Shown: in pieces, positions 44,809 through 45,062 of the stretch
Layout: each line of letters opens with the position of its first letter
How positions within the stretch are numbered: position 1 is the stretch's first letter
Assembly: GCA_028704885.1 (NCBI GenBank)
Contig: JAQWEN010000001.1
Location: 175,172-220,678, forward strand
DNA length: 45,507 nucleotides
From: Candidatus Shapirobacteria bacterium
Lineage (GTDB): Bacteria > Patescibacteriota > Microgenomatia > UBA12405
Reading direction: 5' to 3'
The notes under the pieces: generated by a model
Database searches by the model: none
The model's input: only the letters and a program-made list of their open reading frames with translations
What the model was told of the DNA's origin: nothing
Program-made: the position numbers and the translations under genes

Positions 44809-44820
44809 TTAAAAAACGAA

Positions 44821-44841
44821 AAAGCCCCGGGGAGGGGCTTT
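44821..44841 (-). terminator. Intrinsic terminator of unit H
   Basis: AAAGCCCC/GGGGCTTT stem followed by TTCGTTTTTT on the minus strand. Confidence 0.8.
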
Positions 44842-44855
44842 CTAATATTAAAGAT

Positions 44856-44986
44856 AAAGGAGAAACGGGGTGCGAAACTCTAGAGGAGCCACACTCCAAA
44901 TCTCTCCTTTGTCTTTAATTTAAATTGTTCAAAGGAGAAACGGGGTGCGAAACTCTAGAGGAGCCACACTCCAAATCTCTCCTTTG
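44856..44986. repeat. Two identical 56-bp hairpin modules with a 19-bp linker
   Basis: AAAGGAGAAACGGGGTGCGAAACTCTAGAGGAGCCACACTCCAAATCTCTCCTTTG at 44856-44911 and 44931-44986. Confidence 0.97.
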
Positions 44987-45033
44987 AACAATTTGTTATT
45001 TAAAAGTACGAATTATTGAATAATTCTAATGTT

Positions 45034-45062
45034 ATTATAGTTCTATTATAGGCTCTTGTCAA
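45034..45062 (-). promoter_or_regulatory. Consensus sigma70 promoter of unit H
   Basis: TTGACA-17 bp-TATAAT; spacer contains GCCTATA. Confidence 0.85.

Follow-up and report, generated by a model that had tools for sequence, protein, structure and literature searches.

A hairpin module of Candidatus Shapirobacteria, present in tandem in a predicted stand-alone RNA gene

Close to one end of a 45,507-nucleotide stretch of a Candidatus Shapirobacteria genome (hereafter the window), the original prediction placed a promoter-terminator unit whose sole payload was two structured modules, and proposed it as a new non-coding RNA. Is this locus a gene for an RNA, and what could such an RNA do? The consensus promoter, the two exact 56-nt copies and the strong terminator are all present on the minus strand, and the only open reading frames in the unit are tiny, as had been claimed. 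On the strength of its sequence organization, the segment at 44811-45062 (minus strand) is a self-contained gene for a predicted non-coding RNA of about 215 nt. Its parts are as follows.

45034-45062, minus strand: promoter P1, with TTGACA at 45062-45057, a 17-nt spacer containing CCTATAAT, and TATAAT at 45039-45034; 12 of 12 positions match the consensus
About 45027, minus strand: transcript start predicted from P1
45010-45026, minus strand: 5' leader hairpin GAAUUAUU-CAA-UAAUUC, paired in the minimum-free-energy fold and boxB-like in position
44995-45009, minus strand: boxA-like element GUACUUUUAAAUAAC, identified by reading the sequence; putative boxA function
44922-44994, minus strand: module 1, 73 nt, 96 bits with model R1
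44848-44918, minus strand: module 2, 71 nt, with the same 56-nt core as module 1, 96.5 bits with model R1
44811-44843, minus strand: intrinsic terminator AGAAAGCCCC-UCCCC-GGGGCUUUUU followed by a U run (10-bp stem at 44843-44819 plus the T run)

The 56-nt repeat lies at 44856-44911 and 44931-44986, with 100% identity and a spacing of 75 nt. A 31-nt core is found twice in the window, compared to 0.00 copies expected from 100 shuffles, and there are no further copies elsewhere in the 779-kb genome. Module 1 is closed by the 17-bp stem AAAUUGUUCAAAGGAGA/UCUCCUUUGAACAAUUU, whose arms (44922-44938 and 44978-44994) are 100% complementary, and its core runs in the order GAGAGA, a UUU bulge, GGAGUGUG, the apical GGCUCCUCUAGAGUU and CGCACCCC-G-UUUCUC. 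The outer stem of module 2, UUAAAGACAAAGG/CCUUUAUCUUUAA, is unlike that of module 1 and has one C.A mismatch. Both modules are closed in the minimum-free-energy fold, in agreement with the earlier observation that the two closing stems differ in sequence and both pair. The fold energy was -88.8 kcal/mol for the minus strand (z = -12.7) and -83.6 kcal/mol for the plus strand (z = -9.0). Promoter and Rho-independent terminator thus flank a non-coding stretch on one strand, as expected for an independent sRNA gene, and relatives keep this arrangement: 13 genomes of the genus have a P1-type promoter ahead of the module, and in most genomes of the genus the modules end in front of a terminator unrelated in sequence to the one in the window. 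The two-module layout recurs in five independent assemblies (G010, G012, G005, G027 and G061) and in about 10 metagenome contigs, indicating that the duplication is not an assembly artefact, a concern raised at the outset. One metagenome contig (L143) shares 94% identity with the window across 354 nt.

Comparison across species revealed that the module is an irregular helix of about 25 bp and about 70 nt with a purine-rich 5' strand. It is built from an invariant GAGA/UCUC block, a GGRGU/ACYCC block, a 5' bulge that varies in length and sequence and, usually, an apical GGCUCCUC. The apical motif is present in 39 of 48 modules. The remaining 9 carry unrelated hairpins in its place and still conserve the lower helix; the motif therefore cannot be essential. 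Compensatory double changes were found at 17 of 25 pairs in an alignment fitted to the covariance model, and none of 500 shuffles reached the observed values. In addition, 95.5% of alignment cells were paired, compared to 80% in the shuffles and about 55% in slid controls. An independent MAFFT and RNAalifold run on 13 modules identified 10 covarying pairs. Compensatory changes are thus found in all helices, bearing out the idea that selection acts on structure.

The original prediction had cautioned that some wobble pairs favor the plus strand. A.C pairs do exist: on the minus strand each module of the window has four G.U pairs and one A.C pair, with one further C.A in the second outer stem. 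The third pair of GGRGU/ACYCC is A.C in 23 modules (including those of the window's genus), G.U in 22 and G-C in 1. However, when 34 diverged modules were read on the promoter-sense strand, 101 G.U pairs were counted against 12 A.C pairs, and this large excess argues for selection on one RNA strand.

The same comparisons bear on what the module could recognize. The 16S rRNA of the Ca. Shapirobacteria family ends in ...CACCUCCUUU, making AAAGGAG/CUCCUUU in the modules of the window an exact copy of a Shine-Dalgarno (SD):anti-SD duplex. The hidden SD is therefore present at this locus, but is not supported as the feature under selection: GGAG is replaced by AAGAG, UAGAG and similar sequences in 14 of 48 modules, with compensating changes that keep the pairing and the purine-rich 5' strand. 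The internal bulge is about 1-5 nt long and variable in sequence while the invariant positions are helical, a pattern more in keeping with a macromolecular partner than with a pocket for a small molecule. The suggestion of a tandem aptamer accordingly found no footing: helices are conserved, the bulge varies in both length and sequence, and we found no conserved unpaired nucleotides that could form a riboswitch pocket. As for placement, leader-type loci have an alternative 3' hairpin, but this hairpin neither forms a terminator nor sequesters an SD, and a downstream gene is missing from at least six loci. Guanidine-II (mini-ykkC) riboswitches and tandem glycine or NAD+ aptamers are likewise built of two small, similar structures in a row and sometimes lie in a 5' leader; by contrast, our module has no Rfam match, its bulge is not conserved and its stand-alone units have no gene to regulate. 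A kissing loop formed through the palindrome CUCUAGAG can be set aside as a general function, the palindrome being found in only 8 of 48 modules, all from the window's genus.

Covariance-model searches, which also addressed the call for homologues and copy-number variants, found the module in 13 of 38 genomes at the level of the genus and, at that of the order, in 59 of 132 (22 of 46 genera). In a class-wide sample of 401 genomes there were 20 with a match, all in one family (Ca. Shapirobacteria). The module is also on 39 metagenome contigs, and the viral contigs searched had no copies. Genomes carry one, two or at least three copies at a single module locus; on one contig (L061) a module is nested within another, and several contigs break at modules. 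About half of the near-complete genomes lack the module, which is dispensable. In same-genus relatives the site after galU is module-free, with P2 (see below) and its leader alone there, and in one of these (G035) the P2 leader resembles that of the window by eye. A 53-nt core is identical in at least nine species, and the neighboring GalU protein is 58-77% identical in the comparison of the genus with module-lacking relatives. In nine genomes the module and nusG lie on one contig, 14-16 kb apart in most and 23 kb apart in G012. Collectively, these comparative data show that the predicted module is real, conserved and structured, is read from the minus strand, varies in copy number and appears able to form a stand-alone transcription unit.

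Downstream of the RNA gene, the window contains three further features on the same strand.

44693-44732, minus strand: promoter P2 (TATCCTATAA box, TTGACT, 17-nt spacer, TG-TACACT), outside the RNA gene and predicted to drive the leader of the next gene
44445-44692, minus strand: leader of the downstream membrane-protein gene, about 250 nt, with boxA-like GUACUUUAAAAAA at about 44614-44600 and a hairpin with 32-nt arms at 44518-44586
43473-44444, minus strand: downstream gene, 323 aa, with a zinc ribbon at the N terminus, transmembrane helices, a stalk of TTVETTAA repeats and, at the C terminus, an orphan domain

The 323-aa protein has weak zinc-ribbon matches in Pfam and nothing else, and it belongs to the class of anchored surface proteins found downstream of the module across the family; the downstream proteins of other genera had no Pfam match. 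In most other genera the module sits inside the equivalent of this leader, within the boxA-containing leader of a surface-protein gene, and at about 30 of 47 loci it lies in such a leader with no terminator in between. At least six genomes (G088, G087, G078, G080, G107 and G076) instead have promoter-module-U-tract units between convergent genes, at sites where close relatives lack the module.

The organization of the locus is the same as that of the lineage's 16S rRNA gene: a promoter, a 5' hairpin, a boxA-like element, covarying flanking stems, the RNA and a terminator. A hairpin occupies the equivalent place in 16S leaders and in other expression cassettes of the window. The boxA-like element reads GUACUUUUAAAUAAC in the RNA gene, UGUUCUUUAAAAUU in 16S leaders of the genus and GUUCUUUAACAAUCU in leaders of other genera, compared here to the reference consensus GYUCUUUAACAA, and GUACUUUAAAAAA occurs in the window at 20380 and 44614. 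In the RNA gene the boxA-like stretch GUACUUUUAAA precedes a payload with covarying AU-rich flanking stems. Strongly expressed units of the lineage are predicted to share the layout of a TATCCTATA box, a consensus promoter, a 5' hairpin and a boxA-like element. Profile searches found NusB and RNase III encoded in the genome, the latter at G000:C1:305912-306184. Unlike an rRNA operon, the locus would yield a hairpin of 55-75 nt that is neither rRNA nor tRNA, the module is dispensable, and processing is a prediction. In Escherichia coli, stable RNAs are co-transcribed ahead of an mRNA in the thrU-tyrU-glyT-thrT-tufB operon, and the loci of other genera are similar in having module RNA upstream of an mRNA in one unit.

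We next asked whether the module belongs to a known class. No Rfam 15 family reached its gathering threshold in the region, in line with a new RNA as originally proposed. In E-value mode, positions 44400-45300 gave miRNA-like hairpin noise only (best 26 bits, against thresholds of 62-90), and 14 diverged loci gave tRNAs only. A full-text literature search found nothing on RNA motifs in Shapirobacteria or Microgenomates. Stand-alone sRNA genes of reiterated hairpins whose number varies by species, such as CsrB, RsmY, RsmZ and CrcZ, resemble the locus; however, the CsrA domain PF02599 is absent from all 38 genomes of the genus (and was detected in control genomes), and the conserved positions lie in a long helix. 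The GGA triplets are in the paired 5' strands of the P1 and P2 helices, not in the loop as in CsrB and RsmZ, and the loop is CCUCUA. A CsrA sponge was therefore rejected, and a protein sponge of another kind is possible. The ToxI/ToxN system has a similar order of promoter, tandem direct RNA repeats, terminator and downstream gene. Here, however, that gene encodes a membrane-anchored orphan with its own promoter and no endoRNase domain of the ToxN, AbiQ or CptN type, modules also occur singly or without a downstream gene, and the locus is vertically inherited at one site; a type III toxin-antitoxin system is not supported. The GGGGU/ACUCC sequence, with G.U at its third pair, suggested a mimic of the tRNA-Ala or tmRNA acceptor (G3.U70), but tRNA-Ala genes start with GGGCC..., unlike GGRGU, the wobble helix is internal and the genus has A.C at the wobble position. 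Mimicry of, or pairing with, 16S rRNA was discarded because the best local alignments were no better than shuffles. Finally, inspection and Rfam argued against SRP RNA, 6S RNA, K-turn, loop E, group II domain 5 and known self-cleaving ribozymes, whose defining motifs (a GGAA tetraloop with AGCA, tandem G.A pairs, conserved unpaired cores) are absent.

If the module is not one of these, its context offers a possible reading that we regard as doubtful on balance, namely that it is a cis-acting leader element of the surface-protein operon that sets transcript amount or mRNA stability downstream. It could do so as a conformational switch between the closed module and an alternative 3' hairpin, or the outer stem could be cleaved so that the mRNA keeps a protective hairpin at its 5' end; in the window's genome, P1 would be coupled to the gene by transcripts that read through the terminator. 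Across the family the module precedes genes for orphan proteins that are secreted or anchored by the N terminus, which speaks for this idea, as does the insertion of the module between two boxA-like elements of a long conserved leader. So does the alternative hairpin itself, which the 3' strand of the outer stem can form with the next 6-9 nt at about 20 of 29 leader-type loci and which is absent from terminated loci, and G012, a member of the window's genus, has an integrated layout in which the terminator is missing. However, a leader function does not account for the units between convergent genes or for one that precedes ispH (G014), and in the window's genus the strong terminator and the separate P2 leave the gene uncoupled from the modules, whose core is nonetheless 100% identical across species. 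Moreover, the alternative hairpin lacks a U tract and covers no ribosome-binding site, leaving no obvious output, and a purely structural stabilizer would not need invariant sequence. The HK022 put, EAR and LoaP leader hairpins are also promoter-proximal, are followed by an intrinsic terminator and stand ahead of surface or envelope genes, but they differ from our locus, which shares no sequence or Rfam similarity with them and has a P2 after the terminator and units between convergent genes. A reading of the LoaP type further lacks a specialized NusG paralogue. A single match to the NusG N-terminal domain was found in 35 of the 36 genomes that have any (the exception, G031, has three, and two genomes have none), and antitermination of the LoaP/RfaH type was rejected.

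Three further rivals were weighed. It is distinctly improbable that the C/U-rich apical loop (CCUCUA in GGCUCCUC) pairs with the SD regions of target mRNAs, the two modules providing two seed loops. The motif is common, it is complementary to GAGGAG(CC), and GGUGGCUCCUCUA recurs at two more non-coding sites of this AT-rich genome, against a chance expectation of about 0.003-0.02 as estimated from base composition; neither site matched Rfam. RsaE and RoxS are likewise highly conserved small RNAs with a C/U-rich loop complementary to the SD. Against this stand the 9 modules that replace the motif over a conserved lower helix and the want of targets: in the window's genome, 11-mers that could pair with the module are about as frequent as chance would give, and no complementary site lies beside any start codon. 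An anti-SD loop would also have no target specificity, and the invariant helix and its wobble would be left unexplained. The patchy presence, the variable copy number, the nested copy and the contig breaks would suit palindromic repeat DNA of the REP or MITE kind, either selfish or neutral, or a site of recombination, with the promoter and terminator incidental. This reading is very improbable, and close to refuted, given one locus per genome, long-range synteny with nusG, promoter and terminator in module orientation across genomes (G012 lacking the terminator), the G.U excess that signals selection on one RNA strand, and viral contigs free of copies. We consider it exceedingly improbable that each module conditionally encodes a micropeptide, the GUG-started MAPLEFRTPFLL behind AAAGGAG, as had also been suggested. 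In the window's genus a 12-codon frame does begin with a GUG placed 9 nt downstream of the SD-like AAAGGAG, but the frame is shifted or lost between genera, the GUG is absent and GUGGCUCC missing in 11 of 48 modules, and the SD is buried in the 17-bp stem. Peptide conservation, moreover, stops after the first three or four residues, which are themselves fixed by the RNA motif.

We therefore return to the RNA itself, and tentatively favor, from comparative sequence evidence, an autonomous, probably processed small RNA that binds a partner; we hold this with a little less than even confidence. In this model, the module would itself be the functional product, and a conserved trans-acting partner, most likely a protein, would recognize it along the helix. 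Each module has its own closing stem, consistent with autonomy, and tandem copies would provide added valency. Cuts in the flanking stems would probably free modules from longer transcripts, and the genome encodes RNase III. The role of the module is probably tied to cell-surface expression, given that most genera have the module within the leader of a gene for an anchored surface protein. A bolder version, which we think rather unlikely, is that the module represents a class of small, stable RNA that is new and confined to Ca. Shapirobacteria. Its synthesis would resemble that of rRNA, with a boxA/Nus-modified polymerase. Once excised at the flanking stems, the RNA would act as one half of a ribonucleoprotein that is peculiar to the lineage and linked to the cell-surface apparatus of bacteria presumed to be episymbionts. 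As a variant of this idea, the module could be a mimic of an SD:anti-SD-type helix that tunes ribosomes or RNase; the A.C/G.U wobble would be the recognition point and might be pH-sensitive.

To our knowledge, the regulatory and structural RNAs of the candidate phyla radiation are almost unknown. This radiation accounts for much of bacterial diversity, and very few regulators can be recognized in it. The module described here is an orphan RNA family with unusually clear comparative support and a core conserved as tightly as tRNA. It is versatile, occurring alone, in tandem, nested or embedded in a leader, and has an isosteric A.C/G.U wobble. It also exposes the lineage's layout for strong expression and links this layout to rapidly evolving surface proteins. 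Even without a partner, the module could readily be proposed as a new Rfam family; finding a partner would provide a first handle on post-transcriptional control in this lineage.

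The unit on the minus strand proved to be built as the original prediction described: the promoter, the two exact 56-nt copies, the terminator, the pairing of the closing stems and the restriction of open reading frames to tiny ones were all found as stated. Its parts are listed below, followed by the other annotated elements of the window.

Features of the RNA gene and other annotated elements
45062-45034, minus strand: RNA-gene promoter, TTGACA-17 nt-TATAAT, 12/12 match
45026-45010, minus strand: small 5' hairpin, GAAUUAUU-CAA-UAAUUC
45009-44995, minus strand: putative boxA-like element, GUACUUUUAAAUAAC, its role predicted from sequence
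44994-44922, minus strand: hairpin module 1
44918-44848, minus strand: hairpin module 2
44843-44811, minus strand: terminator, GC-rich hairpin with a 10-bp stem, then a U run
34610-34741, plus strand: compact cobalamin riboswitch (Rfam, 33.1 bits, just over threshold)
19474-19591, minus strand: L10 leader (Rfam, 49.7 bits)
4709-4907: two tRNAs

A repeat finder placed the two 56-nt copies, 100% identical, at a spacing of 75 nt and detected a perfect 17-nt inverted repeat closing module 1. The 31-nt core, for which 0.00 chance occurrences are expected, is present at 2 sites in the whole 779-kb genome, both in the unit. The minus strand folds at -88.8 kcal/mol (z = -12.7) and the plus strand at -83.6 kcal/mol (z = -9.0). 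Open reading frames overlapping the unit span only 20-37 codons, and the suggestion that it encodes a micropeptide is close to excluded. The unit matched no Rfam family, even at an E-value of 10 with relaxed filters. Upstream of the -35 element by 20-40 nt lies a conserved YYUAUUUGUGCCUAAUU (45085-45105, minus strand), which recurs at the equivalent place in six related loci (L004, L005, L007, L008, L011 and L012) and inverted (GCACAAAUUAGC) in two more (L006 and L010); a regulator might bind there.

Each module forms a long irregular hairpin, made up of an outer stem, helix P1, a 5' bulge and helix P2. The AU-rich outer stem changes from copy to copy and from species to species, with many compensatory substitutions. 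Helix P1 has a purine-rich 5' strand and an invariant GAGA/UCUC top, below which it covaries (AAAGGAGAG/UUCUCCUUU, AGAAGAGAG/UUCUCUUCU, AUUGGAGAG/..CUCCAAU and AGGGGAGAG/..CUCCCUU). Neither the length nor the sequence of the bulge is conserved. The first pairs of helix P2 are GGRGU/ACYCC; the rest of this helix covaries freely (GUGUG/CGCAC, UAAGUG/CACUUA, UUAG/CUAA). In an alignment of 35 diverged modules, itself fitted to the model, 95.5% of cells were paired, compared to 80% in column shuffles and ~55% in slid controls; 17 of 25 pairs had two-sided changes, and none of 500 shuffles equaled any observed measure. Independent analysis of 13 modules with MAFFT and RNAalifold yielded 10 covarying pairs. 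Among the 46 modules (of 48) in which the third pair of P2 could be scored, it was A.C in 23, G.U in 22, G-C in 1 and never A-U. Protonated A.C and G.U are isosteric, and the wobble geometry itself therefore appears to be under selection. It had been cautioned that wobble pairs favor the plus strand in two places. These sites are real (the conserved A.C and one C.A in the second outer stem), but G.U outnumbers A.C by 101 to 12 in the modelled pairs, which settles the strand: the RNA has the orientation of the promoter, minus in the window.

In the apical part, the sequence GGCUCCUC, which forms a short stem with a CCUCUA(A) or UCCUC loop, is present in 39 of 48 modules and swapped for unrelated hairpins in the other 9. 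A second apical subtype has a hairpin inserted before GCUCCUC (genomes G005, G027, G061 and G100), and in G104 a complete module is nested in the apex of a second, outer one (L061, ~70 nt either side of 1501-1571, minus strand). The apical motif GGUGGCUCCUCUA occurs at two further sites of the AT-rich window genome, G000:C1:319790-319880 (plus strand; ~590-680 of L107) and G000:C1:514973 (plus strand; L106), neither of which matched Rfam. The copy at 319832 is part of a small hairpin, AUCCUGGGG...CUCUGGGAU, preceded by TTGACT-17-TATAGT and followed by U8, which may represent an attenuator or a minimal form related to the module.

Relatives were searched by BLAST and then with a covariance model built from 13 modules (R1) or from the 35 diverged ones (R2); the E-values of these home-made models are rough. 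R1 detected the module in 13 of the 38 genomes from the window's genus and in 59 of 132 of the order; the latter represent 22 of 46 genera and belong almost entirely to one family, Ca. Shapirobacteria. In a class-wide sample R2 detected it in 20 of 401 genomes, every one of them from that family. A degenerate pattern recovered 39 metagenome contigs, each with one or two modules; one of them matches the window at 94% identity across 354 nt and retains the two-module layout. No viral contig searched had a module. Within the genus there is a single locus per genome, 14-16 kb from nusG in most genomes having both on one contig. It holds one module (G009, G015, G006, G013, G014), two (G000, the window's own genome, and G010, G012; likewise G005, G027, G061) or at least three (G018, where the array spans an assembly gap). 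This copy-number series, together with several contigs that break within the array as is typical of tandem repeats, indicates that the duplication is not an assembly artefact. A 53-nt core is identical in at least 9 species, while the promoter region is only ~80-88% identical; the neighboring GalU protein, compared within the genus against module-lacking relatives, is 58-77% identical. The module is dispensable: in eight genomes of the genus that lack it (G011, G036, G021, G023, G030, G020, G001, G035) the site after galU has only a leader of the type at the downstream-gene promoter and the membrane-protein gene, the G035 leader being similar by eye to the window's.

Most other genera carry the module inside a 300-450-nt leader rather than as a separate gene. 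This leader runs from a promoter through a hairpin, a boxA-like element, the module or modules, a hairpin with an ACCGCG-type loop, a near-consensus boxA (GUUCUUUAACAAUCUCUUUCU) and a long hairpin to the SD and the gene; G012, from the window's genus, has the same integrated layout. Almost all the genes behind it encode orphan proteins that are secreted or anchored at the N terminus and contain low-complexity linkers; Pfam found no domain in any of them. The 323-aa zinc-ribbon membrane protein downstream in the window (43473-44444, minus strand) is a member of this anchored class. Its gene contains a perfect tandem repeat encoding TTVETTAA ~4-5 times, a Thr-rich stalk, and sits between a pair of galU paralogues on its upstream side (L023, 3454-5311) and the gene for a polytopic membrane protein of 907 aa (40625-43348) with no Pfam match. 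Many leader-following proteins start with a short, very arginine-rich cytoplasmic tail (AAKKAAETRRANRLAAE-type in L053, L058, L070 and L076; MDPRKSNARRGY-type in L049, L057, L069, L072 and L080), in place of which the window's genus has the zinc ribbon. These tails resemble the arginine-rich RNA-binding motifs of phage N proteins and, by that analogy, could bind hairpins of their own leader.

Elsewhere the module stands alone. In six genomes (G088, G087, G078, G080, G107, G076) a consensus promoter lies a few bases ahead of it, a U run follows directly or behind a terminator, and the next gene is convergent; in G014 the unit precedes ispH and ispG. An IS200/IS605-like (Y1 transposase-like) ORF ~700 nt downstream of the G080 module (L050) is probably a coincidence.

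The order of elements in the window unit is that of the 16S gene in six relatives (L082-L087), where the promoter is followed by a hairpin, a boxA-like UGUUCUUUAAAAUU, a long processing stem flanking the rRNA, and a terminator belonging to the gene itself; in this family the 16S gene is a separate unit, unlinked to 23S. In the window's own assembly no 16S gene was found, nor did aragorn find a tmRNA. Several small orphan genes in the window share a head, also present on the downstream-gene promoter (44732-44693): a TATCCTATA box within a near-consensus promoter or immediately upstream of it, a 5' hairpin (with loops such as AUCGC, AAAGCG and AUAGCG) and (U)GUACUUU. It recurs at 44732, 20380, 16323 and 15755 (minus strand) and 10666 and 22625 (plus strand), including beside the L10 operon, and the box and leader precede surface-protein genes across the family. 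This head may be an rRNA-like (nut-like) leader of highly expressed units. The NusB and RNase III genes lie side by side in the genome. Given the common head and the 16S-like order, the modules seem to fill the payload slot of a generic strong-expression cassette.

Known systems offered partial likenesses. CsrB-type sponges share the idea of reiterated modules, and no CsrA was found in the genus; type III antitoxins share the repeats-terminator-gene order, but the downstream gene here is not an RNase. The likeness to tandem riboswitches ends at the tandem layout, and that to put, EAR and LoaP elements at the position before a terminator. Mimicry of or pairing with 16S rRNA, and mimicry of the tRNA-Ala acceptor stem, were rejected, as the module has neither similarity nor complementarity to them. 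The closest formal analogy, a stable RNA made rRNA- or tRNA-tufB-style from a boxA-containing unit, would bear on the production of the RNA and not on its function.

Selection acts on the individual module: it is closed by a stem of its own, comes in one, two or three copies, can be nested and keeps its core invariant with or without a following gene. Selfish DNA is close to excluded. Because conservation lies in the helices and the bulge, the only sizeable unpaired element, is variable, the pattern looks like that of a site read by a macromolecule rather than a small-molecule pocket or catalytic core. A regulator that base-pairs through the anti-SD-like loop is improbable, as not every module has the loop and a search for targets found none. 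The main rival, still rather unlikely in our judgment, is a cis-acting leader element serving as a switch, processing site or read-through device. Synteny speaks for it, as does an alternative 6-9-bp hairpin directly 3' of the last module (for example, UUGGUGAUUA-UCACCAA): in ~20 of 29 leader-type loci (L049, L051, L052, L057, L058, L059, L062, L064, L069-L073, L076 and others) the next few bases copy the 5' strand of the outer stem and offer its 3' strand a second pairing partner, although shuffle controls for this are weak in AT-rich sequence. Only one of the two, this hairpin or the closed module, can form at a time; the hairpin covaries between genera, and terminated loci lack it. However, it has no obvious output, a single NusG is present in 35 of the 36 genomes of the genus with any match, and the stand-alone loci speak against a leader element.

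Together with the terminator and the separate downstream-gene promoter found in this genus, these stand-alone units point to an RNA whose function requires no action on a downstream gene, and so favor an autonomous small RNA, a reading we put forward tentatively. Such an RNA would come from a transcription unit of the stable-RNA type, and its outer stems would probably be trimmed, as a closed module presents >20 bp of duplex and the genome encodes RNase III, the enzyme's role being proposed from sequence and gene presence. It would then be bound by a conserved putative partner, with tandem copies raising valency. Its recurrent placement in surface-protein leaders suggests that the RNA is co-expressed with, or acts on, a cell-surface programme.
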